64,000 nt of DNA from an uncultured Bdellovibrionales bacterium (GTDB taxonomy: Bacteria > Patescibacteriota > Minisyncoccia > Moranbacterales > UBA11712): the NCBI GenBank assembly GCA_964519445.1, contig CAZFIH010000001.1, positions 2,144 to 66,143 of the forward strand. The letters are read 5' to 3'. Shown piece by piece: positions 2,642-59,230 of this stretch. Both the position numbers and the translations under genes were made by a program. Each line of letters opens with the position of its first letter. Position 1 is the stretch's first letter. The notes under the pieces are model-generated. The model saw only the letters and a list, made by a program, of their open reading frames with translations, was not told where the DNA came from and did no database searches.

Positions 2642-3766
2642 TCATTTGTATGAGTCTGTCAGAATTTCTGAATAATTGTCCGGGTTGTGGTAACCGCCTT
2701 CAGTCGGATCATAAGCGGAAAGAGGCAGAGTGTAGCTTCGCCCGGTGGAAGGCGAAACCAGATCCGATTCCACGCCCATAATGGCATCGCTGAAATTATG
2801 CGAAGCGCGATCCTGGACGCTATTGCGATATTCCCAAGCTTCCATCAAGGGACTCGAATCATTCTCCAGATCCGCCGCAGTCGTCAGTTTGACCATATCC
2901 GCGCCGCCGACTTTTGAAGGATTGGTTATTATCGCGCTTAAAGCCACCCTTTCCAGAAGCGGCGCCCACTTGTCCCACTTGTCCGGTGTTGTCTGAAAAC
3001 CTTTGAAAACGGCAACATACTGCCCCTGGCCGTTGATAACACCGGCATCGGCTTTTATTTTCAGGGGAGTGTTCTCTTTTTTGCAGGTGAAAATTTTTGT
3101 CTTTTCTTTCCAGACATAGCCGGGAGCGGACGGATTGGCAATTTCTCCTTCTTCGGATTGTGAAATATAGTTTATGCTTGTCAGGCCGCCCATATCGGCT
3201 ATTTTTTCGATGAAAGCGTCCGGGCTGCTTTTGCCGGGCCAGCCCGAAACTGCGATCAGGGCGACGCCTATATTGCTGTCTTCAGGATTGACAATATTGA
3301 TTCCGTTTATGCTTTCATCCGTTTTCCAGCCTTCGGGAACCTTGGCGGAAAATATTTGCCCGTTGTAAGCGGCCAGCTTCAGGGAAGAATTTACATAATT
3401 TTCAGATAAGAATTCCGATCCGGCCGCGTCGTATTTTTCTGCTTCCTCCCTTGAGATGCATTTTTTTCCGTTGAAACATTCGCCCTTGCCGCAACTGCAG
3501 AATTTCACTTCATGGCTGTATTCAGGCGCGCAGCCGCAGGCCCCGATGGCGCAATTGTCCGGAAAATCTTCGGCTGACTCGCAGCAGGACGCGGCGGTAA
3601 CGGTGCCTCCCGAATCCAAACAGGCCTGTTCCCGGTCAGACGGCGTTTCAATATCCGCCGTTTTTTTATTTTCCGCCGGCATTTTTGTTTTTGAAAACTG
3701 AACTGCCGCCCAAACGGCCGTGCCGGCGATAATTATTGCAATAGCCGCCAAATAAATTTTTTTCAT
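2642..3766 (-). CDS. secreted/membrane-anchored Cys-rich protein (hypothetical)
   Basis: The ORF is trimmed to the internal start MKKIYLAAIAIIIAGTAVWA (signal anchor), because the longer start overlaps the upstream gene. An N-terminal Cys-rich module follows. Confidence 0.5.
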   Translation of the reverse strand: MKKIYLAAIAIIIAGTAVWAAVQFSKTKMPAENKKTADIETPSDREQACLDSGGTVTAASCCESAEDFPDNCAIGACGCAPEYSHEVKFCSCGKGECFNGKKCISREEAEKYDAAGSEFLSENYVNSSLKLAAYNGQIFSAKVPEGWKTDESINGINIVNPEDSNIGVALIAVSGWPGKSSPDAFIEKIADMGGLTSINYISQSEEGEIANPSAPGYVWKEKTKIFTCKKENTPLKIKADAGVINGQGQYVAVFKGFQTTPDKWDKWAPLLERVALSAIITNPSKVGGADMVKLTTAADLENDSSPLMEAWEYRNSVQDRASHNFSDAIMGVESDLVSPSTGRSYTLPLSAYDPTEGGYHNPDNYSEILTDSYK

Positions 3767-3788
3767 AAGCTTTCGTTTAATGTTTATT

Positions 3789-4742
3789 TTATTTTCTGCA
3801 TAGCCATACAAATTCACTTTGGCTGTCTTTTGAAAAGCATTCTTGTTTTTCACAGTCAAAACCTTGTTTCTTATATTCAGGCAGTTCGCTGCTTTCCGAT
3901 TTCAGATATTTCCAATCATCATATTTTGATTCACAAGTCCATTCCACTTTTGTCACAGATGGCTCGGGCATTACGCTCCCCTCCGCTTCACCTCCTGAAA
4001 ATTCCAAAGGCATGGGGTAACATTTATAATTTTTGTTTTCAAAGCCAATTACTTGGGCAGGCAGGCGTTTTTTGTCCCAATTTTCACGCGAAGTGATAGT
4101 GACTTCAGTATACTTTTCGTCAGTAAATGTTTGAAGATCTTTAAACGGCTCAACTGTTCCGTTTAGCAGATTAGTGCAATCTTTTCCGGAAAACGAGATA
4201 TCCGAACCAGTATTCGACTTAAAACTCCGGGCCATGCTCTCAAAAACGGTTCCAAATCTTTTGTATACGGACTCATTTTCATAAGTGCAAAAAAGACCAA
4301 GTCCTTCTTGGCCATTTAAAGTATAAATTGCGTCTTTCATTCCTTCGGGCTGCCGGGTAAGTAGATATATGGCTTTTTGTCCGGCTAAAAGCGTCTCTTT
4401 CTTTCCTAAAACTTTTTCCTCCGATGCCGGATCTTCCATAAGCCAGCTGATAAATTCTTCAAGATTTTGAGGCTTTCCTTGTTCGTTTGTCAGGGCATTA
4501 GAAAATCCGTAAGCATAACAAATGACCTCTTCTCCTGGAGCAATCATTTCTCGTCCGGCATTATTGGTTTCCGCTTCGCCCAACTGCCAGTTAGGCGGAT
4601 ATTTCAAACTGAAACCATAACGGGAGTTTTCATAAACGTTCCAACTGCTCCATTTCTGACCTTTAAAATATAAATAAAAAAGAAAAAAACAAAACAAGAT
4701 TATTACAATAATCACGATAAAGCAAATGACTTTCTTTTTCAT
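3789..4742 (-). CDS. membrane-anchored secreted protein (hypothetical)
   Basis: 317-aa ORF with an N-terminal TM (MKKKVICFIVIIVIILFCFF). An extended -10 TGTTATAAT lies upstream at 4775-4783 (minus). Confidence 0.5.
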   Translation of the reverse strand: MKKKVICFIVIIVIILFCFFLFYLYFKGQKWSSWNVYENSRYGFSLKYPPNWQLGEAETNNAGREMIAPGEEVICYAYGFSNALTNEQGKPQNLEEFISWLMEDPASEEKVLGKKETLLAGQKAIYLLTRQPEGMKDAIYTLNGQEGLGLFCTYENESVYKRFGTVFESMARSFKSNTGSDISFSGKDCTNLLNGTVEPFKDLQTFTDEKYTEVTITSRENWDKKRLPAQVIGFENKNYKCYPMPLEFSGGEAEGSVMPEPSVTKVEWTCESKYDDWKYLKSESSELPEYKKQGFDCEKQECFSKDSQSEFVWLCRK

Positions 4743-5154: not shown

Positions 5155-6066
5155 TTATATTCTCAAATACCTTCTGATGGCGATGAGACTGCTTACTGTG
5201 CCGAGAGCCATGCCGGTCAAGAGCTGAACGATGAATATGAGCCAGTACCAGCGCATGAAGTTGGCCTGAACTTCAGCCACGGAAACTTGTCCGGCGACAA
5301 AAGGCGCCAGGAGCTTCATGGCGGGAAAAAGGAGAATGGAGACGATTATCGCGGAAATAGCGCCGTAAATAATTCCCTCAAAAATGAAAGGCAGGCGTAT
5401 ATAATGGTTGGAAGCGCCGACGAGGCGCATAATTTCAATTTCCTGGCGATGGGCATAGATCGTGATCCGAATGGCGTTGAAAGTGATGAGAATGGCGATG
5501 AGCGAAAACAAAAGCACCAGAACAAGGCCCACGTTCCGGGATGTATTCAAAATGGTATTCAGTCTCTCGATTATGATTTTGTTTTTGGCGTAGTTTATCC
5601 GGCTTATGTCTGATTTGAATTCAGAATTTTCAATGGCGTTGGCAATTGTGTCGTACTGATTGGGACTGACAGCCTTGATGTTGACCGACGCGTTGAGGGG
5701 ATTCCCGCCGATGGCTTCGAGCGACTGGAGTATGACGGGATTATCCTCGTTTTTGGCTTTGAATTCCTGAAGAGCTCTTCCTTTCGACACGTAATCCGCC
5801 GATTTAACCTCCCGATAGGAAAGAATTTTCGAGCGAAATTCGAGAATCCGTGATTCTTCGGTCTCGCTCACGAAATAGACGCTGATGTCCACTTTGTCCT
5901 GGACGGATTTGATCACCAGGTTGGCCGAGATGGAGAGCACGATAAGGAGGCTGATGATAAGAAGAGTCAGAATCAAAATGCTCATTACGGCAAAACTCAA
6001 CCAGCCGTTTCGCCAGAAATGCTGGAGGCCGGACTTGAATGTGCGGGAAAACGTAAGTAATATCAT
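5155..6066 (-). CDS. ftsX: cell division permease-like protein FtsX
   Basis: 303 aa with an N-terminal TM, a large periplasmic loop and three C-terminal TMs (FtsX topology). It lies immediately downstream of ftsE. Confidence 0.85.
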   Translation of the reverse strand: MILLTFSRTFKSGLQHFWRNGWLSFAVMSILILTLLIISLLIVLSISANLVIKSVQDKVDISVYFVSETEESRILEFRSKILSYREVKSADYVSKGRALQEFKAKNEDNPVILQSLEAIGGNPLNASVNIKAVSPNQYDTIANAIENSEFKSDISRINYAKNKIIIERLNTILNTSRNVGLVLVLLFSLIAILITFNAIRITIYAHRQEIEIMRLVGASNHYIRLPFIFEGIIYGAISAIIVSILLFPAMKLLAPFVAGQVSVAEVQANFMRWYWLIFIVQLLTGMALGTVSSLIAIRRYLRI

Positions 6067-6086: not shown

Positions 6087-6203
6087 TCTCTGCGAACTAC
6101 GAAATTATACGAACATACGAAAATAAATTTCTCTTGTCGCGCGATTTACAAAATATTTGAACAACAATTTTTTATTTTAGTACATTTTCGTAGTTCGCAG
6201 AGA
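6087..6203. repeat. TACGAA-arm palindromic element between ftsE and ftsX (18-bp perfect inverted repeat TCTCTGCGAACTACGAAA, 81-nt spacer)
   Basis: Arms at 6087-6104 and 6186-6203. The loop contains AATATTTGAACA. Confidence 0.7.
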
Positions 6204-6205
6204 GT

Positions 6206-6892
6206 TCAAATGGAATATCTCCCCTTGCTGTGGTCGCGGGACAATCGTCCCTGGTCGAGAGTAATGACTCTTTTTTTGACGCGGTTCACGATGTCTTTGT
6301 TGTGAGTGGCCAGAATCACGGTTGTGCCGAGCTTGTTGATCTTCAGCAAAAGCTGAATGATCCCCCACGAGCTGATCGGATCGAGGTTCCCCGTCGGCTC
6401 GTCGGCAATGATGAGCGGCGGACGATGGACTAGGGCCCGCGCGATCGCCACTCTCTGTTGTTCCCCGCCGGAAATTTCTCTCGGATAGCTTTCCGCTTTG
6501 TGGGCAAGTCCCACGATTTCGAGAATTTGGGGAACGCTTTTTTCAATTTCTTTGGCGGGATAATCGGAAACTTCCAGGGCAAAGGCGATGTTTTCGTATA
6601 TTGTTTTATTGGGAAGCAGTTTGAAGTCCTGAAAGACGTTGCCTATCCGGCGCCGGTGCAGAGGAACTTCCTTGGGTTTGATCTGGGTGATATCCTGGTT
6701 TTCGAAGAGCACTTCTCCGGATGTGGGCTTTTCTTCCGCGGCGATGATTTTGAGAAGAGTCGACTTTCCGGCGCCGCTGTGCCCGACTATGGAAACAAGC
6801 TCTCCTTTTTTAACTTCAAAACTGATGTCATCCAAAGCGACAGTGTTGATTCCCCCGGTATAGACCTTTTTTACGTTTCGGAATATTATCAT
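6206..6892 (-). CDS. ftsE: cell division ABC ATPase FtsE
   Basis: Walker [13 protein letters not shown] signature [15 protein letters not shown] and Walker [13 protein letters not shown]. Confidence 0.9.
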
Positions 6893-6914
6893 AAAAATTC
6901 AAAATTAACACATC

Positions 6915-7012
6915 AAAATGCGAAACCGCAGCGTGAAATTCAAAATGAAAAAATATCAAAATCGATTCCGGATTCTATTTTGATATTTTTTGCGTTTCGC
7001 ATTGTCGCCTTG
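6915..7012. repeat. long imperfect hairpin between prfB and ftsE (AAATGCGAAAC...GTTTCGCATT arms)
   Basis: AATGCGAAACCGC / GCGTTTCGCATT and AAAAATATCAAAAT / ATTTTGATATTTTT pair around CGATTCCGGATTCT. Confidence 0.5.
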
Positions 7013-7016
7013 ATTT

Positions 7017-8962: not shown

Positions 8963-11716
8963 TTATTTAATTCTTATCGCACTTAGACTCTCAACTATTA
9001 AATCTGCTGCTTTTTCATTGACCCACCGAGGAGATTTTTTCTTTATCTGGTGAACAATGACATCTATATCTGCATTGATAATTTTACTCAATACTGCAAC
9101 TGATTTTTGTTTTAGTTTCGGTTTCAAGCTTGAATCTTCGATTTTTCGCAAAAGCTTGAAAAGATTTTCCAGTGTTTTTAGCTTTTTACGGAAATACTTA
9201 TAGGCAACTGTTTTCTTAATTAAGCCTAATTTATGATAATGATCAAAGTTTTTCCGGATGGCGCTGATATCTGTCCCTACTTGGAAATTCGCCTCTTTTT
9301 CAGCTGAATTCCCAGCTTCATCAGTAGCGGAAATTTTCAGTGTATATTCTCCCAAGCGCTCAAGCGAGAGGTCTATACTCTTCTCCATCCAGTCGAGTGC
9401 TTCTCCGTTTTTCTTAACTTGCCATGATTCAATACTAATTCTTGATTCGAAATCTTCGATTTTATAATCAATCATCAAAGTTCTATCATTAGTATAGCTT
9501 GTTTCCTCGGGGGAGAAAATAGTTATCATTGGCGGTTCCGTGTCCGGATTGTACAATACTTGATCATCGGCAACTTCAATTTCAAACTCTTGCACTACGC
9601 CTGCTTGGGACTCACCCGCTATTTCAGTCGAAGATTCGATCGCATTTCCTAGATCATTGGGATTTTCAGTGATTTTAGTTGTTTCTATTGTATAACTCCC
9701 TCCTTCTCCCGTTCCTTGCACCAGAATCTTATATTTTCCATTCTCCGAATTTGGGATGGTGACAAATTCATTTTCAGTATCAGATCCAGTGTAATAAGCT
9801 CCTTCGATTTCATTCACTTCTTCCCCCGTTTCAAAATTCTTCCCTATTTTCCTGCCGCTTGGAGATTCGATTTGAATGTCTGCGGGCGAAAAAACACCGA
9901 ATGTCAAAATGTCGACAACTCTGTCGAAAATATTCGCGGCGGAACAATCCTGATTCCCTGACAATTCTGTGAACACATGACATTGAGCCGCCGTGGGAAG
10001 ATCGCCGTGAGATGAATTCAGGATTATTTCTTTGTTAGACGCAATTCCTTTTGCGCTGGAGAACGGCACTGTTTCATCCCCGGGTCCGTACTCGATTCCC
10101 TGATCAGTACTGTCATCATAATAATTTTCCGGCATCCCGTGTTTCCATATGCCGTCGGTATCACTTTCAGCAACTCTTAATTTTTCTATCGTGTTGTTTC
10201 TTTCCGTGTCTGAAATGATATTCGTAAAATCAATGTTGTTTAGACGATTTAACCTACCTGAACCATTCAAAAAATCCAGGAAAGTATTTCGCGGATAATC
10301 ATTCGGGTAATTTCTCATCTCCCCGCTTGATGATTCCCTTAAATAGTCGTAATCGGGAAGGAGTTCTTTTACGGAAATCACCCTTCCCTGGATATAATCC
10401 TTCAGATTATCAAATCCCGAATGTTTTGCTTCGATTTTAAACATGCTTTCAACAATATTATCATCAAATGCTGTTCCTATTTCGCCAGCCTCCCATGTTA
10501 AATAACTTTTCGGTGCTCCTTTGTGCGGAGTTCCTAATGTAATGAGTTGATCAATGTCATTTTCATAGCTTTCTCCTTCTATATAATAGCGTGCAATAAG
10601 TCCTCCCATCGAATGAGCAACTATATCAACTTTTGGACGGCCTGTTTGATTTTTCACTTCACTGATTTTTTCTTTCAGTTCTTGCGCGGTTAGAATATTG
10701 CTGTCACGCCATTCGTATGGAAACTCAAAAAGCTTTTCTTCTTTTTCATAACCATTCTTTTCTAGAGATGCAATTAAATTATCATAAGTGTGGAGTATGG
10801 GATCGATTTTCAGTTCTCCAACTCCTCCTGGATATTTTGTAGCTGACCCCATAATCCCCGGAATGATGATCACCGGATCGGGATTCTCAATTGGGTCTTC
10901 TTCGAGCCATGGATCAAAAGTGAGCTGGCCGGTAACCGGATTTCCTTCGCCGTCTGGATTTTCATCTTCGTTGTAAGGTCCTGATTCGTCTCCCCACCAG
11001 TTATACCTCGCGTCCAATGCCGGTATGTCCGGATCAGAAGAATTTGTCGCGATTACTCCCGTATCGTTTTCCAATATTACGTTGTTCACCGCAACTGAAG
11101 TTTCTCCGGATTCAAATGTTATTCCTCTGGTATTATCACTGATTATGTTCGAATCAATCACAAATTTTGCATTTCCCAAATATTTAAGAGCAGTGCCGTT
11201 TTTCTTGAATTCACAATTTTTAACCATAATCTCACGATTTTGTTGGTTCGAAGCCTGGATTTGAACAGCCAAATAACTATAAAAAAATTGCGCGTGTTCA
11301 ATTCTGATTTTGACATCATCTGATGGAGAAATGCTAATATAATGCCAATCCCCGATTGAAGGCTTATGCGCACCTCCGTCACCGTTTGTGTCTCCGCCGT
11401 GCTCGTCATCCCTCATAGAAGTGAAAACCACGGGTTTTTCCTTCGTACCTTTAACGATAAAATCGTCTTGAATGATCAGTCTTTCCAGGCTTCCTCTGTT
11501 GAACTTTATCAGGGTTCCCTCCTCGATTGTTAAAGGTGCGGCAATAATATTCCAGCCGGATAGAATGTATGGACTGTTTTCTTTTGTCCAAGTTGTGGGC
11601 TCTGTTATTGTTCTCGCCGCAAGCCGTGTCGGCCCTTCGGCGTTCGTCAGGTCAGTAAATAGTGAGAACGCAAGAAAAAAAGTGACGAGATAGAAAATCG
11701 GTTTTACTGTTTTCAT
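8963..11716 (-). CDS. large secreted protein: right-handed beta-helix region plus lipase-like alpha/beta hydrolase domain
   Basis: Signal peptide [20 protein letters not shown], pectate-lyase/NosD-like repeat segments, and a lipase nucleophile elbow [14 protein letters not shown]. Confidence 0.55.
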
Positions 11717-15619: not shown

Positions 15620-16942
15620 ATGAACATATTGTTCGTTTCTGAAGATTTAGTTGCCGGAAATTTGGCCTATATTTTGAAAAAAGAAGGACATAGCGTCAAA
15701 CTGTACATAAAGGACAAGAGACGCAGAAAAAATTTTTCCGGATTAGTTGAAAAGATTCCAGATTGGAGAAAAGAACTGGACTGGGTCCGAAAAGATGGGC
15801 TCATTGTGTTTGACAGCGGTTCACATGGGAAAACTCAGGAAAGCCTGCGAAAGCAAGGTTATTTGGTTTTCGGCGGCTGCAAGCTGGGTGACAGGATAGA
15901 AAGCGACCGCACATATGGAGCCGACGTTTTTTCTCGCTTTGGAATGAAAACCGCTCCCCTTTGTGATTTTGAAAACTCGAATTCCGCTGTCCGGTTTCTG
16001 AAAAAAAGAAGGGGTCCGTGGGTTTTGAAACAAAATGTCGCCGGAACGGGTCTTAAAAGCCTCAATTATGTCGGGATGCGGGAAGACAATCGGGACATGA
16101 TAGATCTTTTTTCTCATTATCAGAAAAGAGGATTTCTCAAGAAGAGCAAGAGTCTGACCCTTCAAGAAAGAATTTTCGGTGTGGAGATGGGAGTAGGGAG
16201 ATTTTTCAATGGAAAAGAATGGACCGGACCAATTGAAATCAATTTGGAACATAAGAAATTCTTTCCAGGCGATCTGGGTCCGTCGACCAGCGAGATGGGA
16301 ACTTTGGCCTGGTACGACGAAAATGAAAGCAATAAGTTGTTTTCCGAGACCCTCGCAAAACTGAAGCCATATCTTCGCAAAATCGGTTTTCACGGAGACG
16401 CGGAACTCAACTGTATCGTCAATGAAAAAGGGGCATTTCCGCTTGAGGCGACCATGCGTTTCGGATCGCCCATCATTCATCTCCAAACCGAAATCCACGA
16501 ATCTCCCTGGGGAAATTTCTTGCAGTCGGTTGCAAAAACAAAAGAATACGATCTGAAATGGAAAAAGGGTTATGGAATTGTCGTAGTAGTGACAGTTCCG
16601 ACTAGTAATCCCTTTCCTTTTTCGAAAAACGAAAGCTACGTTTCGCCGGAAGGACTCAATATCTATTTTGACGAAAGATTGAACAAGAATGATATGAAAC
16701 ACGTCCACTTTGAAGACGTGTCTTTGAAAAAAAAAGGCGGTCTTGATCAATTTTATATTTCAGACAGTCGAGGATATATTCTCTATGTCACCGGAATAGG
16801 AAAAACCGTTGCCGAAGCGAGAACAAAAGTCAATTCAATTTTGAAGAAAATTCAAATACCCAAAATGTTCTACCGGAACGACATCGGATTGAAATTTTTG
16901 GACCGTGACCAATCCAGACTAAAAAAATGGGGATATCTCTAA
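15620..16942 (+). CDS. ATP-grasp enzyme, PurD-like (phosphoribosylamine--glycine ligase family)
   Basis: N-terminal MNILFVSEDLVAGNLA; PGDLGPSTSEMGTLAW resembles the PurD GPNTGGMGAYSP loop; C-terminal YVTGIGKTVAEARTKV...RNDIG matches the PurD C-domain. The track ORF 15821..16750(-) is antisense noise. Confidence 0.55.
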   Translation: MNILFVSEDLVAGNLAYILKKEGHSVKLYIKDKRRRKNFSGLVEKIPDWRKELDWVRKDGLIVFDSGSHGKTQESLRKQGYLVFGGCKLGDRIESDRTYGADVFSRFGMKTAPLCDFENSNSAVRFLKKRRGPWVLKQNVAGTGLKSLNYVGMREDNRDMIDLFSHYQKRGFLKKSKSLTLQERIFGVEMGVGRFFNGKEWTGPIEINLEHKKFFPGDLGPSTSEMGTLAWYDENESNKLFSETLAKLKPYLRKIGFHGDAELNCIVNEKGAFPLEATMRFGSPIIHLQTEIHESPWGNFLQSVAKTKEYDLKWKKGYGIVVVVTVPTSNPFPFSKNESYVSPEGLNIYFDERLNKNDMKHVHFEDVSLKKKGGLDQFYISDSRGYILYVTGIGKTVAEARTKVNSILKKIQIPKMFYRNDIGLKFLDRDQSRLKKWGYL

Positions 16943-23632: not shown

Positions 23633-26218
23633 CTACTTACGTTCTATCGCCATTCCAACATATTTATCCGCGTTCAAAATTGTTTCCACTTGAAAAGTGT
23701 TCCCGTTCCGATTGACGCTTTCCGGCCAGTGCCAGACGGTTTTCATGCTGTCCGGCAGAGTTATTTTTGAGTCCAAGCGGCTTCCCTGGCTTCCCGACTG
23801 TTTTTGATACAGCACCGAAAAAGAATCGGCCGGATGGTGAAGATTGTCAAATTTGACTTGGAACGGCAGACGGTACTTGTAGCGCATCGTGACGCTTTCG
23901 CCCGGACTCACATAAACCCAGTTGGCAAAGACCGTCTTGCGGTTTTCGGTGTAAATTTTTGTTCCCGTTTCTTCATCTGTCCGCAAAGAATCCCGATTGG
24001 CCTCGACTTGAGGATCGGCCTTAAAGTTGAGCGAATTGTAGTCAAGGGGCGGTGAAACGAACTCGCGGGTTTGACCCTCGGCTTCAAGAAGGGCGGAGCC
24101 TTCCGGAACATAAACGCGCATCCAATCCCCGTTCACCTTGTTCCACCAGTCGTATTTTTCATTTCCTCCCTTGTGAACTCTCGTTATTTCAACCGTGTCA
24201 ACAATGCTTCCGTCGCTTTGAATTTCAATTTGATGTCTAATATTCTCGTCTATGACGCCGTCCGTTTTGTACCCGTTGATGTTTGTGTTTATGACGCTCA
24301 AATAATCTTTTGGGGTATTGAGAATTTCTCCCGACCAGCCTTCTTTGGAAATAAGATTTTGGATGTTGTAGTTTTTTGAGTAAAGAAGCAGATGCTTCTC
24401 CCGGAGAGCTTCATTGAGAGCCGAAAGAGTTTTCACGATTTTGGCAACGTCTTTGGCGTTCAAAACCTCATCCAGTACTTTGGGGGTCAAATCGGCAATG
24501 AATTTTTTGGGGCGGTTTTCCTCTTTGTCGTAGTCGACCTCGACTTCATATTGAGTTTTTTCAATGAAATTGCGGGCGTCCACCGTCGTGCCGTATTCGG
24601 GCATTTCAATGGGTCCGGTTATCTCCAGCAGATTCTGAATCAAGTTCGGAGTAATCGCAACAACTCCGTCCACGGTAGGCCCTCCCGTTTTTTCATAGAA
24701 AAGCGACACTTTTTCAGCTGATGTCGGGAAATCCGGAAACCAGTTGGCGTCGTGCATCGTCCAAACAGCGCTCATTTTCTGAATTGGCTCGGGCGGAATG
24801 ACGCGGGCCTGGAGTTGGCCGTCCGGGTTATATATGTTGTCAACAAAGAGATTTTTTATCCTTCCGTCTCTTATGTCGAGAATTCCGTAGCTTCCGATAA
24901 AGCCGCCAGTGGCTCTCATTTCCTGATTATTTTGAAAAAGGAAGAGAAATTTTCGCTGGCCGTGGTAGCCGAGGACGTCGAGAAAAATTTCAGAATAATC
25001 AAGAAAATTTTCGAGATTGCTTGTTATGACAGGCAATTTTTCCTTGAGGGTCAAAAATTGAGGCTTCATTTCGTCCGGCAGATCGTCGATATTGACTTTG
25101 TTGATGTTTTCTTCCGCTTCCTTCATATCGTTATTGGCTTTTTCGATCCCCTTTTGGAGGTTCAAAAATATTTCCGTGAGCGACGGTCTTTCGGTGCTGT
25201 CGCCCGAGAGCGGGTTTTGAAATGATCCAAGGACCGATGTGGATTCAGAAATGTTTTTTCCGGCAAGAGCCAGATTTTCTCCGGCCGCGAGCACATAGTT
25301 GGCGCTGGCTACTTTTGAAATTCCCGGAATGAATCGGAGCACCTCGCTGAATTTTCCGCCCATTGACGATATGTCTTCCTTGGCTTCGGAAAGAATTTGG
25401 TATGATTCTTCGAAGTTGGCGGCGGCCCCGCCAAATTGTCCGGAAGAAAGGTTGTTTTGCGCCTGGACGAATCCGCTCAAGGCCGCTTGCCCGCTTTCAG
25501 TTATCCGGGCTTCCATGTCAAAGCCTTTTTGAAGATAAGCCATTCCCGGAAGCGCGAGGGAAAAGACGGCAAGGACCGATGCGAATGTGCCGATATATTT
25601 GAGCCTAAGAGGGAATGGTATTGTGTCAGTTTCTCTTTTTCTCCTGATTTTTTGGTTTGGCTTTTTATCTTCAAGCAAACTCAAAATATTATCGGCGGAC
25701 TGGTCGATTTCGCTTTCTTTTGACGGGGAAAATGAAGGGGAATCTTCGGGTCGGAAAAAGCCATCGATCTCTGTCTTTTTTTTGATAATTTTTTCTTCCA
25801 AGAATTGCCGATCGGTTTTTTGAAAGTATTCTTTTTTTGGCTTTGTTTCTGGTTCAAAATGATCCTCGGGAGCGGCCGGCGGTTCCGGAACCTTGGAAAT
25901 GGAAATGCAGTCATAAGGAACGACTTTTCCCATCTGAATGGCGTTGGCACGTCGTCTTCGTTGCTTTTCTATAGTTTTTTTCCGGGAAGACAAATAGCTT
26001 TTCTTCGGAAGAGGCGCGATTTCTCCATATGGAGTATAACTTTTTTTCAAGTCGGATATGCGCTTCTGTTTGTTTCTTGCCAAATTATCTTTTCTCTCGC
26101 GGCCAATGACGGCAGTTCTTTTCAATCCTTTGATTCTGTTCATATCCAAAGACCCGTCTGCCTTCACGGGACGCACATCGAACATTTCGGAAAAAATATT
26201 TTTTCGTCTTGATGGCAT
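23633..26218 (-). CDS. DUF4012 domain-containing membrane protein
   Basis: Hallmark RATGGFIGSYG motif. Single TM, large ectodomain, next to the glycosyltransferase cluster. Confidence 0.7.
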   Translation of the reverse strand: MPSRRKNIFSEMFDVRPVKADGSLDMNRIKGLKRTAVIGRERKDNLARNKQKRISDLKKSYTPYGEIAPLPKKSYLSSRKKTIEKQRRRRANAIQMGKVVPYDCISISKVPEPPAAPEDHFEPETKPKKEYFQKTDRQFLEEKIIKKKTEIDGFFRPEDSPSFSPSKESEIDQSADNILSLLEDKKPNQKIRRKRETDTIPFPLRLKYIGTFASVLAVFSLALPGMAYLQKGFDMEARITESGQAALSGFVQAQNNLSSGQFGGAAANFEESYQILSEAKEDISSMGGKFSEVLRFIPGISKVASANYVLAAGENLALAGKNISESTSVLGSFQNPLSGDSTERPSLTEIFLNLQKGIEKANNDMKEAEENINKVNIDDLPDEMKPQFLTLKEKLPVITSNLENFLDYSEIFLDVLGYHGQRKFLFLFQNNQEMRATGGFIGSYGILDIRDGRIKNLFVDNIYNPDGQLQARVIPPEPIQKMSAVWTMHDANWFPDFPTSAEKVSLFYEKTGGPTVDGVVAITPNLIQNLLEITGPIEMPEYGTTVDARNFIEKTQYEVEVDYDKEENRPKKFIADLTPKVLDEVLNAKDVAKIVKTLSALNEALREKHLLLYSKNYNIQNLISKEGWSGEILNTPKDYLSVINTNINGYKTDGVIDENIRHQIEIQSDGSIVDTVEITRVHKGGNEKYDWWNKVNGDWMRVYVPEGSALLEAEGQTREFVSPPLDYNSLNFKADPQVEANRDSLRTDEETGTKIYTENRKTVFANWVYVSPGESVTMRYKYRLPFQVKFDNLHHPADSFSVLYQKQSGSQGSRLDSKITLPDSMKTVWHWPESVNRNGNTFQVETILNADKYVGMAIERK

Positions 26219-26246: not shown

Positions 26247-26362
26247 TTTACGAAATACGAATTTTGCGAAATACGAAAAAGTTAAAATAGCAGAACATTT
26301 TTTCACTAATCAACCAATCAATATTTGAACATCTGTTTCGTATTTCGTTGTTCGTAAATACG
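26247..26362. repeat. TACGAA-arm palindromic element upstream of the DUF4012 gene
   Basis: Arms TTACGAAATACGAATTTTGCGAAATACGAAA / TTTCGTATTTCGTTGTTCGTAAA. The loop contains AATATTTGAACA. Confidence 0.65.
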
Positions 26363-27484: not shown

Positions 27485-27580
27485 ATTGACTCGCGCCTGC
27501 CTGCCGGCAGGCAGGAATTGTGAGTGGATTAAAACGAATGGGAGCGAATGATTCGTTCCAATTCGTACGCAATTCGTTCT
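27485..27580. repeat. duplicated upstream element R1 (GCCTGCCGGCAGGC palindrome plus TTCGT repeats) before GT4 gene 26363..27484
   Basis: About 80% identical to 28715-28812. Confidence 0.6.
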
Positions 27581-28714: not shown

Positions 28715-28812
28715 AAAAACTCGCGCCTGCCGGCAGGCAGGCAGGAATTAGGAGTGAATTAGAAACGTGTGAAAACGAACTTTTCGTTCCGATTCGCGTG
28801 GAATTCGTTCTC
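28715..28812. repeat. duplicated upstream element R2 before GT4 gene 27581..28714
   Basis: The CCTGCCGGCAGG palindrome ends about 10 nt before the ATG, with AATTCGTTC repeats beyond it. Confidence 0.6.
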
Positions 28813-29424
28813 TCATTCGTGAGTTATATAATGCTTCCCGAAAGCCGCAAGTGTTCCGAGAAACAGCCCCGCCAAGATAGCTGCCAAAAGATTGATTCTC
28901 AAATCCTGTCTGTTTCTGGCTGCGACAAAATCAGAAGATTCGACCACAAACCAGTTGGGATCCTGGGATGCGGCGTTCAGCGCGTTTGTTTTTTCGCTTA
29001 TGACGTCCTCGATGGAATCGGCCAATTTTTTGGCCTCTTCTTCATTTTGGGTTGAATAATTCACCCGAATGACATTGGATGCAATTTTTTCCGGACGAAA
29101 ACTTTTGGAAAGCTGTCGAACAGTTTTTCCTCCCGGATCAAGCTCCGCTTTTTCCAGAATCGATCTTGAAACGCCGGCTGATTTGAGCCAGACTTCAATG
29201 GCTTCAGCGAATTTTTCATCGGCCTGCAGGCGATAGAACTGGTCATAGCGGTAGTCAGAAGAGGACTGGAAATTGTTCCGGCTGATTTCAAGCAGTTGGG
29301 AGGCGGAATAGCTCTCCGACATTCGAACTGACCAGGCGTAAGCGGCAACGATGGAAATCAAAACGACGTAAATTACGACGGAAATGTGATGCCTCCATAT
29401 TTTGTAATATTCTCGGAGTTCCAT
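28813..29424 (-). CDS. two-TM polysaccharide co-polymerase-like protein (Wzz-like, tentative)
   Basis: N- and C-terminal TM helices bracket a periplasmic-type domain. Sits inside the glycosyltransferase locus. Confidence 0.35.
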   Translation of the reverse strand: MELREYYKIWRHHISVVIYVVLISIVAAYAWSVRMSESYSASQLLEISRNNFQSSSDYRYDQFYRLQADEKFAEAIEVWLKSAGVSRSILEKAELDPGGKTVRQLSKSFRPEKIASNVIRVNYSTQNEEEAKKLADSIEDVISEKTNALNAASQDPNWFVVESSDFVAARNRQDLRINLLAAILAGLFLGTLAAFGKHYITHE

Positions 29425-30651: not shown

Positions 30652-30798
30652 AAGAGATGATGCTAATCCGCCAACCTTATGCTAATCAACGAATTGCGAA
30701 TTGTGCGAATAAATTTTAGCTTTTTTGGGCGGTTTTAGCAAATGAAAAGCCCTGCCGTCGTTTGGCGGCAGGGCTTGGGTTGCCGAAAAATATCTCCC

Positions 30799-33085: not shown

Positions 33086-33099
33086 AATTTATGAACTAT

Positions 33100-33194
33100 G
33101 AAATAAACGAAAGTACGAAACAGATTTCAAGATATTGATTGATTCATAAAGGGAAAAAGTTCCTGATATTTCAACGCTTTCGTATTTCGTAATG
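33100..33194. repeat. TACGAA-arm palindromic element between the dedA-like gene and the sugar transferase gene
   Basis: Arms ACGAAAGTACGAAAC / GCTTTCGTATTTCGTAA. The loop contains GATATTTCAACG. Confidence 0.6.
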
Positions 33195-34614: not shown

Positions 34615-34660
34615 CGGTCGTTACGAAGTACGAACTCCTACGAAGTTGCGAACTCGTGCA
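34615..34660. repeat. tandem TACGAAGT(T)RCGAACTC direct repeat 3' of rnpB
   Basis: TTACGAAGTACGAACTCCTACGAAGTTGCGAACTCG. Homologous to the P3-internal TTACGAACATACGAACTACGAA. Confidence 0.55.
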
Positions 34661-34724: not shown

Positions 34725-35416
34725 ATATATACAGTTAGCCAAAACCTGTAAGCCGGATTCTGTCCCCTCCCTTCACGAAGGAAGGGGGATAATCATTTAT
34801 CTAGCCCCGGCGTCGCCGACGGGGTCAAGCGTCTCCCCCTTTCTCTACCAAGGAAGGGGTACAGACTTGCATCAGGCAGGGTTTGCCAAGGCACGGCCGT
34901 TGCCAGCCGGCTCCAATCGCAGCTCAATACCTCACGTGAGTGAATATTGAACACCAATCGGCTTTTCACCTTTGACCGACGCGAAGCATCGGCTAGTATA
35001 GTCTCTGTGGCACTTTCCCTGAATCCATCTTTCAATGAAACCGATGGGCGTTATCCATTGCCTGCTTCCACCACTGCCTCGCAACGGGAGCTCCAATAAT
35101 CAAGCGCCAAATGACAAATAAATATCAATTACCGAAATTCTAATGACCAGAAGTTTTGGTTATCGGAAATTGGTATTTGGAAATTATTAGGTATTTGGAT
35201 TTTGAAATTTGGAATTTCCGATGCGAAGCATTGGAGGGATGTCCGGACTTTCCTCGCGGATCCTTACGAATTACGAATACGCTTCGCTCTTACGAACATA
35301 CGAACTACGAATTATCTTTATTAACATCAGAGGATGATGCGGGTTCGTAGATTCGTATTCATTCCGTAATTCGTAAGGATCCGCGCGATTATCCGGTTTT
35401 GGCTAACTGTATATAT
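34725..35416 (-). ncRNA. rnpB: RNase P RNA, about 690 nt, with expanded P3 and an inserted AT-rich hairpin
   Basis: On the minus strand: a 22-bp perfect terminal pairing ATATATACAGTTAGCCAAAACC / GGTTTTGGCTAACTGTATATAT (P1); GGATAATC/GATTATCC (P2); P4 5' strand GAGGAAAGTCCGGAC (plus 35241-35255); AAAGTGCCACAG (plus 35005-35016); P4 3' strand ACAGAATCCGGCTTA (plus 34749-34763). A consensus TTGACA-15-TATAAT promoter lies at 35417-35446. Confidence 0.75.
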
Positions 35417-57659: not shown

Positions 57660-57806
57660 GTCACGTACCTTACCTGCCCGCCTTTGGCTGCGGTACGTAT
57701 CCGGTTACTTATAATTTGCCCGCCGCGGGCGGGAATCACGGAATTATTTTGCAAATAACATTCTCACATTCTCCCCCCAGAGGCGGGCAGGCAAGAATGC
57801 TGGAGG
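57660..57806. repeat. family-1 mosaic repeat, copy D
   Basis: ACGTACC...GGTACGT hairpin, GCCCGCCGCGGGCGGGAATCACGGAATTATTTTG, then a 45-nt near-identical copy of the 1409-1456 module. Confidence 0.65.
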
Positions 57807-58615: not shown

Positions 58616-58652
58616 TACGACATTCTCACATTCTGCAGAATATTAGAATGTT
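58616..58652. repeat. ACATTCTCACATTCTGCAGAATATTAGAATGT palindrome (family-1 H module) between arsR and the hydrolase gene
   Basis: Inner 7-2-7 palindrome ACATTCT GC AGAATAT with outer ACATTCT/AGAATGT arms. Confidence 0.65.
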
Positions 58653-58930
58653 TTTATGAATTTCAAAAATCTTGATCCGTAAGGCGAGAGGCTGTGCTCT
58701 ACCTGGCGGCCGCGGTATTTCTTGTTGACCAAGCCGGCCTGCACCAGTTTTCTGGTATGTTCCGAAATGGTTTTGATATTGCAATCCAATGCCGCCGCAA
58801 TCCCGTCAACGGTAATCCCTGTGTTTTTTGAAACAAGGCCCAATATTTCAATTCTCCGGTGATTGGCCACGCCCTTGAAATGCCTTTCTAGTTGCTTTGG
58901 AGTTTTGCTTCTTGCTTTAACTATTTGCAT
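58643..58930 (-). CDS. ArsR/SmtB-family HTH transcriptional regulator
   Basis: Winged-helix region HRRIEILGLV...DCNIKTISEHTRKLVQAGLV, 95 aa. Confidence 0.7.
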   Translation of the reverse strand: MQIVKARSKTPKQLERHFKGVANHRRIEILGLVSKNTGITVDGIAAALDCNIKTISEHTRKLVQAGLVNKKYRGRQVEHSLSPYGSRFLKFIKTF

Positions 58931-58975
58931 TTATTAGCAGTGCTACAATAGTATCAAATACGGAAGAATATTCCA

Positions 58976-58996
58976 ACATTCTGCAGAATATAGGAA
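58976..58996. repeat. ACATTCTGCAGAATAT palindrome upstream of arsR
   Basis: The same 16-mer as at 58623-58638, about 46 nt upstream of the arsR ATG. Confidence 0.65.
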
Positions 58997-59230
58997 TATA
59001 TTCTATTTGCTTCGCCAATCTCTAATTTGTATTCCTCCTCTTATTCTTGCGACTTTCACTTTCTGTCTTTCTCGCCAGCCGAGCTCGCGGAGCATTTCAA
59101 TTGGAAGGGTGATGCCCAGAGAACTCGCGCCGATTCGGGATATTTTTCGGATGTTTCGATTTTGAATTTTCCGCCTCGCCATAAAATAGGTATTTAAATA
59201 TGTATTTTAATAAGTATTTCTATTTTTATC

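Follow-up and report, generated by a model that had tools for sequence, protein, structure and literature searches.

Short palindromes dispersed through bacterial genomes have been assigned to several systems. The REP sequences and REPINs of Pseudomonas and Escherichia coli are short palindromic repeats that lie in transcribed spacers, rarely between divergent genes, and show no target-site duplication; most copies are gene-less, and inverted copies flank the gene of a small enzyme, the RAYT. The intervening sequences (IVS) of 23S and 16S rRNA, some with a 23S_rRNA_IVP gene (PF05635), are extended hairpins at the tip of a structural-RNA helix with an optional small open reading frame (ORF) in the loop, and rRNA insertions with a PF05635 ORF have been reported in the candidate phyla radiation (CPR) (PMC11270868). 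Classical miniature inverted-repeat transposable elements (MITEs; Correia, ERIC, RUP, BOX) are small, non-coding, hairpin-forming, co-transcribed and polymorphic between relatives. The short tandemly repeated repetitive (STRR) sequences of cyanobacteria are intergenic arrays of a heptamer unit, and are said to have been described by Vioque in 1997 in helix P12 of cyanobacterial rnpB, where they extend the RNase P RNA. Free-standing homing endonuclease genes (seg and mob of phage T4) are small nuclease genes wedged among host genes, which are conserved, co-oriented and tightly packed with them, and missing at that junction in relatives. Each of these systems shares the properties just named with the elements described here, a family of palindromes with TACGAA/TTCGTA arms first seen in a 64,000-nt stretch of contig CAZFIH010000001.1 (the whole stretch is called the window below) from an uncultured, Moranbacteria-like bacterium of the Patescibacteriota.

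We regard it as fairly probable that the TACGAA palindromes of the window belong to a small palindromic insertion element, widespread in Patescibacteria (CPR), of which they are gene-less copies, and the presence of a GxxExxY nuclease gene between the same arms at other loci suggests that this element is selfish and mobile. The window palindromes are real, lineage-specific hairpin insertions. All five copies listed in an initial annotation were confirmed in the sequence, as four hairpins and one solo arm, a count far above chance. They are given here together with the RNA gene that hosts one of them.

6087..6203, minus strand: gene-less TACGAA hairpin at the ftsE/ftsX junction, arms 6087-6122 and 6168-6203, loop 6123-6167.
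26247..26362, minus strand: gene-less TACGAA hairpin in the GT4/DUF4012 spacer, arms 26249-26277 and 26337-26356.
33086..33194, minus strand: partly decayed TACGAA hairpin occupying the whole spacer between the Bac_transf and VTT-domain genes, arms 33099-33119 and 33179-33191.
34622..34652, minus strand: solo four-unit arm, TTCGTA-type in the mRNA sense, ending 8 nt upstream of the Bac_transf start codon (34613).
35255..35385, minus strand: TACGAA hairpin in rnpB P3, arms 35265-35311 and 35344-35375, P3 stem 35255-35264 and 35376-35385.
34733..35410, minus strand: rnpB, bacterial class A RNase P RNA with two insertions, true 5' end near 35410.

In the window, 48 copies of the hexamer TACGAA were counted where 26.9 ± 5.0 are expected, and 0 of 100 dinucleotide-preserving shuffles gave as many; three triplets of it with 1-4 nt gaps were found against none in the shuffles; among the hexamers that recur at 7-10 nt and are not of low complexity, it ranks first by far. 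The plain 8-nt period proposed at first had to be given up, as the hexamer starts are spaced by 7, 10 and 8 or by 7, 9 and 7 nt and what repeats is the heptamer TACGAAT, in a 2+2 layout. Window arms carry four TACGAA(T) units with gaps of 1-2, 3-5 and 1-2 nt, namely 6091-6121 (1, 4, 2), 26249-26277 (1, 3, 1), 34622-34652 (1, 4, 2) and 35344-35375 (1, 5, 2), with one mismatch each. In the ftsE/ftsX copy, the left arm reads TGCGAA-c-TACGAA-atta-TACGAA-ca-TACGAA and the right arm TTCGTA-g-TTCGCA followed by two decayed units, the two forming an inverted repeat (I1) of 36 nt with 83% complementarity. Its 18-bp perfect outer stem, described in the initial annotation, was confirmed (-40.2 kcal/mol, z -5.7). 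Folding of every copy had been proposed as a check, and two passed it, this one and the rnpB copy with its 21-nt perfect arms (inverted repeat I3; -61.9 kcal/mol, z -9.1), both being very stable; the hairpins at 26247..26362 and 33086..33194 fold weakly (z -1.1 and -1.6), and the region of the solo arm no better than shuffles (z +0.7). The word AATATTTGAACA, thought to be conserved in three loops, is exact as a 12-mer in two and agrees at 9 of 12 positions in the third, and the one resembling it at 34940 is part of the conserved core of rnpB.

To define the distribution of the family, two collections were scanned, one genome per GTDB species with three TACGAA units and a metagenome sample with the canonical arm of 24 specified bases; each scan gave at least 120 loci. 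The same four-unit arm is present across many Patescibacteria phyla and in some Bacteroidota, which refutes the earlier description of the family as genome-specific. The genome-scan matches listed fall into two classes, strict tandem arrays and the four-unit arm followed by its inverted copy. The latter, with gaps of 1-2, 4 and 2 nt, was found at no fewer than about 20 loci, in Nomura-, Doudna-, Uhr-, Moran-, Magasanik- and Harrisonbacteria, Saccharibacteria, Paceibacterota, unclassified Patescibacteria and a few Bacteroidota. In the 738 kb of metagenome matches listed there are 242 arms, of which 159 are perfect; we estimate the chance expectation for 24 specified bases at about zero. The arm consensus is C-TACGAAT-TACGAAT-nnn-TACGAAT-A-TACGAAT, with a seventh unit position that is never G and a commonest gap layout of 1, 4, 2 (135 arms among the matches listed). 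The arm is thus about 31 nt long with four TACGAAT units at gaps of 1-2, 4-5 and 2 nt, and the second arm is its inverted copy. The loops between arms (0-174 nt) are mutually unrelated in sequence; elements of the same genome share their arms, spacers included, and differ in their loops. The strict (TACGAAT)n arrays have 3-18 units, of which 76% have T as the seventh base, and occupy at least 87 loci in Nostocales, Bacteroidota, Acidobacteriota, Planctomycetota and Verrucomicrobiota, most of them without an inverted partner. Phage carriage was also looked for, and the canonical arm is absent from IMG/VR.

The position of the elements follows a simple rule. Among the matches listed, 66 of 68 arm pairs within 200 nt are arranged as TACGAA…TTCGTA and 2 in reverse, and among the 52 pairs for which genes were called on both sides, the neighbours are co-directional in 47, convergent in 5 and divergent in none. 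A stop codon mostly precedes the 5' arm by 2-8 nt, and the 3' arm mostly ends 3-14 nt before a start codon, at junctions that include groES/groEL and rpsC/rplP. Solo arms obey the same rule, those in the TTCGTA sense lying 3-10 nt before start codons; nine solo arms among the matches listed are in divergent intergenic regions. The same holds in the window, where inverted TACGAA…TTCGTA partner arms lie between the stop and start codons of co-directional genes: arms begin 2-3 nt past the stop codon at two junctions and 6 nt past it at the GT4 junction, and end 4-30 nt ahead of the next start codon (the ftsE stop codon is at 6206-6208 and the ftsX start codon ends at 6066; the GT4 glycosyltransferase stop codon runs from 26363 and the DUF4012 gene starts at 26218).

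Syntenic loci were then compared across relatives at 76-80% protein (FtsX) identity. The ftsE-ftsX spacer measures 18-28 nt in three relatives against 139 nt in the window, where the element starts 2 nt past the ftsE stop codon and is followed by the original A-rich spacer. In relatives L121 and L125 no spacer separates the Bac_transf and VTT genes, which overlap or abut; in the window a 109-nt element lies between them. At rnpB P3, L121 has a short hairpin, L125 an unrelated long one and the window the TACGAA hairpin. Hence, with empty sites in relatives at ftsE/ftsX, sugar transferase/VTT and rnpB P3, the window copies at these three sites are insertions. In the GT4/DUF4012 spacer, L121 also has TACGAA arms, around a different loop, and L125 a TTCGT-type variant.

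The rnpB gene deserves separate treatment. Its Rfam match (RF00010, 111.9 bits) covers 34733-35112 only, because of the insertions, and the Rfam/Infernal alignment puts model position 1 at 35112, mis-assigning P1-P3. The P1 strands are complementary (34733-34746 with 35396-35409), the universal GAGGAAAGUCCGGAC is found at about 35229-35243, where GAGGAAAGTCCGGAC is likewise placed, and a promoter-like TTGACA-17-TAATAT lies upstream at 35441-35413; taken together, these features show that rnpB spans approximately 34733-35410. The TACGAA hairpin sits at the P3 position between GGATAATCGC and GAGGAAAGTCCGGAC and, with 21-bp perfect outer arms, a stability of -61.9 kcal/mol and a P3 that is short in L121, is a helix-tip insertion of the IVS type. 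Such arms mislead RNA-family annotation, and large hairpin insertions lead to wrong RNase P RNA boundaries in CPR genomes.

Three other observations concern rnpB. The second insertion (about 35113-35225) is a different, imperfect palindrome with units of the CCAAAT/ATTTGG type, and a similar insert is found at another rnpB position, near P12, in L125 (about 9680-9760). In L251, a 23S_rRNA_IVP (PF05635) gene is flanked by periodic inverted AATTTTGA-type arms (3726-3779 and 4149-4216) that resemble this second insertion, and the CCAAAT/AATTTTGA-type elements may form a parallel family of a hairpin element with a small ORF. The 3' region of the L121 rnpB (about 9885-9910) contains the mini-palindrome TCTCTACGAATTACGCAGAGA, which is like the outer ends of the window ftsE/ftsX element and could be a minimal copy or a footprint.

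A candidate protein partner for the arms came from the metagenome matches listed, among which four loci have arms about 400 nt apart that enclose an ORF. All four ORFs (4 of 4) are GxxExxY genes (TIGR04256, E 1e-30; PF13366 PDDEXK_3, E 1e-27 to 1e-30), and these are the only close GxxExxY homologues in the metagenome sample among the matches listed. As an independent test, five GxxExxY homologues were picked by protein similarity alone, and only then was the DNA read.

P0163, between T2SSE and T2SSF: both arms.
P0156, between subunits of hydrogenase/NADH-dehydrogenase type: both arms, with an extra 137-aa ORF enclosed.
P0124, between T2SSF and a pilin gene: both arms; the same element as metagenome locus L193.
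P0181, between zwf and gnd: both arms.
P0150, after an arginase gene: full 3' arm and a single 5' hexamer.

Four of these loci are new and one was re-found, and three of the new ones have both arms. The total is eight independent GxxExxY loci with arms, seven with both and one with the full 3' arm and a single 5' hexamer. The gene (about 130 aa) occupies the position of the loop and, wherever its orientation was recorded, runs in the direction of the host genes; none of the loci examined has a DDE transposase gene between its arms. The catalytic D…ExK does not vary, and the AlphaFold model (pLDDT 92) has a PD-(D/E)XK fold, with Cas4, lambda exonuclease, tRNA-splicing endonuclease and Hjc as the nearest solved structures. 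Sequence search gave no solved structure for the family, and the fold search only generic PD-(D/E)XK relatives. The family comprises 15,735 clusters at 50% identity (E up to 0.001), and its function is given as 'Unknown' in one review that lists it (PMC3424549). Many homologues lie on very short contigs, which is consistent with assembly breaks at repeats. Within the 8-kb loci of the strict (TACGAAT)n arrays of other phyla, no adjoining GxxExxY gene was found. The extra 137-aa ORF mentioned above (L250 2603-3016) lies upstream of the GxxExxY gene, appears by eye to have a hydrophobic N-terminus and to be Cys-rich, and is without a Pfam match in the gene table.

More distant GxxExxY genes are accompanied by other repeats.

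L034, uncultured bacterium: flanking repeat ACAGAA / TTCTGT.
L263, Bernardetia: flanking repeat CACAGAG.
L269, Bacteroides finegoldii: three ACAGAGG on each side.
L270, Sphingomonas, fabD/fabG junction: three CGCGAAG, upstream only.
L264, Gemmatirosa: CGCGGAT hairpin, downstream.
L261, Treponema: single inverted repeat.
L268, Fusobacteria: direct repeats.

The TACGAA-flanked proteins cluster tightly in one clade, and a second clade holds the two CACAGAG-type proteins; arm type follows protein clade. In L268 (Fusobacteria plasmid pZRK30-1), the GxxExxY gene lies between direct repeats of about 25 nt (540-612 and 988-1052) that take in the sequence preceding the ribosome-binding site; insertion seems to have duplicated the host spacer.

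Several results weigh against reading the window palindromes as gene-less copies of a mobile element. A six-frame search with hidden Markov models found no GxxExxY gene in the 64-kb window; the window copies are therefore gene-less. The loops of gene-less elements are unlike decayed GxxExxY genes, only 1 of 32 matching a C-terminal motif (0.1 expected), and an origin of the gene-less copies by deletion is consequently unsupported. Target-site duplication was not found, including at ftsE/ftsX where the filled and empty sites were compared, and flanking direct repeats of 2-6 nt at offsets 0-5 appear no commoner than we would expect for AT-rich flanks. Filled and empty sites were compared across relatives of 76-80% identity rather than strains, and both collection scans selected their loci by the motif itself. 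No clear signature emerged at the RNA level: the inter-unit spacers are 43% complementary against 33% expected, a weak excess; sense-strand G-U against A-C mismatches number 21 to 13, which is not significant and gives no sign of RNA-level selection; and compensatory changes number 8 against 0.85 expected, all of them being one T-to-A variant (an AACGAA unit) in four elements. Finally, arm type and protein clade could co-vary merely through joint inheritance.

The foremost alternative is that the hairpins are cis-acting RNA elements of the host, serving translational coupling, RNase III processing or mRNA stabilisation and read through UACGAA/UUCGUA by a conserved CPR RNA-binding protein, the GxxExxY genes having merely landed in their loops. 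This would explain why the hairpin base abuts both stop and start codons, why the pairs listed are mostly co-directional (47 of 52) and never divergent, why copies lie within r-protein, groES/groEL and ftsE/ftsX operons, and why the hexamers are conserved across phyla while the spacers vary; the great stability of the ftsE/ftsX and rnpB hairpins suits it as well. Nevertheless, we consider it unlikely, as orthologous junctions do without the element, having spacers of 18-28 nt or overlapping genes, one copy is within an RNA other than mRNA, rnpB, the sense strand shows no G-U bias, and shuffles fold as well as two of the four window hairpins. Moreover, arm type tracks the clade of the enclosed nuclease, which is unexpected if the genes had landed at random.

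Less probable still are neutral products of replication slippage, similar to the cyanobacterial STRR arrays, that would need no dedicated machinery and survive where they are harmless. The strict (TACGAAT)n arrays of 3-18 units, at 87 or more loci in five other groups and mostly without an inverted partner, speak for this reading, and STRR repeats in cyanobacterial rnpB are a precedent. Slippage, however, explains neither the fixed four-unit 2+2 layout (gaps 1-2, 4-5, 2) across phyla nor the inverted arrangement (66 to 2 among the matches listed), the C/G caps and the enclosed nuclease gene. Short units in direct and inverted arrays resemble operators of the omega/MetJ type, and solo arms exist, nine of those listed in divergent intergenic regions, but an explanation as iterons in double-stranded DNA, bound by a host protein (a transcription factor, or a ribbon-helix-helix nucleoid or partition protein reading 7-8 bp repeats), is very improbable, since pairs avoid divergent, promoter-bearing spacers (0 of 52 listed) and sit in operons and rnpB, sites are gained and lost among close relatives with neighbouring genes unchanged, and promoter and terminator scans gave one weak promoter-like match (9/12) on the ftsE/ftsX arm and none at the other copies.

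Two regulatory functions were rejected directly. As a sigma-70 promoter, the sole match (9/12) uses the ftsE/ftsX arm as a -35 box, and nothing convincing was found. As regards intrinsic terminators (a GC-rich stem and a T-run), no terminator-like site is present at any element, and A-rich sequence follows the stems.

We thus return to the mobile-element reading and its relation to described systems. The earlier label 'REP/MITE-like' holds in so far as the elements are palindromic, dispersed, located in transcribed intergenic spacers and missing from three sites in relatives, and fails for MITEs in that their target-site duplication was not found. Unlike in REPIN/RAYT systems, the enzyme here is a PD-(D/E)XK protein (PF13366) and not a Y1 HUH transposase, the arms have four periodic TACGAAT units without a GTAG head, and the family spans many phyla. 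Most copies lie in mRNA spacers, in contrast to rRNA IVS, and the ORF belongs to a different family. Classical MITEs differ further, as a DDE-transposon parent was not found either, and only the arms are conserved here while the interior is free. The STRR arrays have a counterpart in the strict (TACGAAT)n arrays of Nostocales; the CPR arms are instead not open-ended, having four units at fixed unequal gaps (starts 7, 10, 8) and an inverted partner. In comparison with free-standing homing endonuclease genes, the junctions are diverse, palindromic arms are present and gene-less copies far outnumber the gene. TIGR-Tas arrays also occur in CPR and alternate short conserved motifs with short variable stretches. 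Their units have spacers of 8-12 nt, lie in arrays beside tas genes and are processed to 36-nt guide RNAs (PMC12045711). This candidate was rejected, as the gaps here are 1-5 nt, the copies are dispersed singly and no array was seen (no search for tas genes was run). When the elements were compared with REP/RAYT, classical MITEs, STRR and TIGR, the features that define each of these were not found. Closest in logic are REPIN/RAYT systems, and in RNA geometry the rRNA IVS with its optional ORF. The initial statement that the arms match no described element stands for the literature searched, and they now have a candidate protein partner in GxxExxY; neither the TACGAA/TTCGTA arms nor a link of GxxExxY (PDDEXK_3, PF13366) to hairpin arms is described in the searchable literature, outside which most subscription journals fall. 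We place the elements, as probable members, among selfish palindromic elements, with some chance that they mark a broader undescribed class.

Y1_Tnp genes (IS200/IS605- or RAYT-type) were also encountered, inserted next to ftsX in a relative (L266 4160-4867) and next to a pilin gene on a different CPR contig (L257 2984-3412); the latter is flanked by GC-rich hairpins of its own, not by TACGAA arms.

The genes around the window elements, all on the minus strand, are ftsE, ftsX, prfB, three GT4 glycosyltransferase genes and those of a DUF4012 protein, a polyprenyl-phosphate sugar transferase, a VTT-domain protein and an RNase H, and their closest homologues are in Candidatus Moranbacteria and other Patescibacteria. 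Periodic runs had been noted upstream of all three GT4 genes. The runs are present, though with AACGAAT/ATTCGTT units at 10-12 nt spacing that are related to the TACGAA arms yet distinct from them.

27534..27577, minus strand: AACGAAT/ATTCGTT run with 10-11 nt spacing, upstream of a GT4 gene, family membership uncertain.
28783..28816, minus strand: ATTCGTT-type run with 10-12 nt spacing, upstream of a GT4 gene, family membership uncertain.
30689..30710, minus strand: short AACGAA/GCGAA run of three units, upstream of the third GT4 gene, fold z 0.0, family membership uncertain.

A further periodic run had been assigned to the prfB-ftsE hairpin (6915-7012), which proved to be a different, non-periodic palindrome. 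The spacer (6893-7016) is 124 nt long and contains a nested palindrome, AATGCGAAAC…GTTTCGCATT, around a 22-bp A/T-rich stem; because the same junction measures 2-50 nt in three relatives, this hairpin is another lineage-specific insertion, of a different type. Two GT4 paralogues are preceded by a CCTGCCTGCCGGCAGGCAGG hairpin with 4-nt periodic arms (27494-27516 and 28724-28743), and the same motif is nested within TACGAA elements of L121 (about 16285-16305) and L219 (about 2920-2935); it may be another small repeat that enters TACGAA elements, or vice versa. Palindromes of ACATTCTC units (ACATTCTCACATTCTGCAGAATATTAGAATGT) are found at 58620-58651, 58968-58999, 1407-1463 and 57758-57771. Two of them bracket a 95-aa gene (58643-58930, minus strand) whose product resembles, by eye, a winged-helix repressor of the ArsR type, and the ACATTCTC palindromes look like operator sites rather than mobile hairpins.

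From the arms, their positions and the enclosed gene, a mechanism may be proposed. The element inserts into short operon spacers a few nucleotides past a stop codon, and also at the tips of structural-RNA helices, as in rnpB P3. Because both arms can pair, the inserted RNA would fold out as a hairpin and hence be tolerated, since the stop codon before it and the start codon after it, or both strands of the host helix, would stay side by side. It is plausible that the arms are iterated binding sites for a protein and part of the mechanism, the four hexamers of each arm most likely being recognition sites of the element's own nuclease. By analogy with RAYT and REPINs, the nuclease would act in trans on gene-less copies, and RNase III may cut the element stems as it does in rRNA intervening sequences.

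More tentatively, and with rather less than an even chance in our estimate, the GxxExxY (PF13366) nucleases and their inverted arms of periodic units could constitute a widespread, undescribed class of prokaryotic selfish elements with a REPIN/RAYT-like logic. Such a class would be driven by PD-(D/E)XK enzymes, each clade reading its own 6-7 nt unit (TACGAAT, CACAGAG, CGCGAAG and others), inserting into operon spacers and RNA helix tips and shedding many gene-less hairpins. If so, a protein family with some 15,700 clusters at 50% identity would gain an assigned function, and some of the STRR-like heptamer arrays in Cyanobacteria, Bacteroidota and other phyla might be explained. The tie between hairpin and nuclease leads to testable hypotheses on the function of GxxExxY, on the origin and tolerance of rnpB, rRNA and operon insertions in CPR, and on a possible independent evolution of a REPIN/RAYT-like partnership with a different enzyme. 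Small and densely packed as they are, CPR genomes tolerate many hairpin insertions in essential operons and in RNase P RNA.

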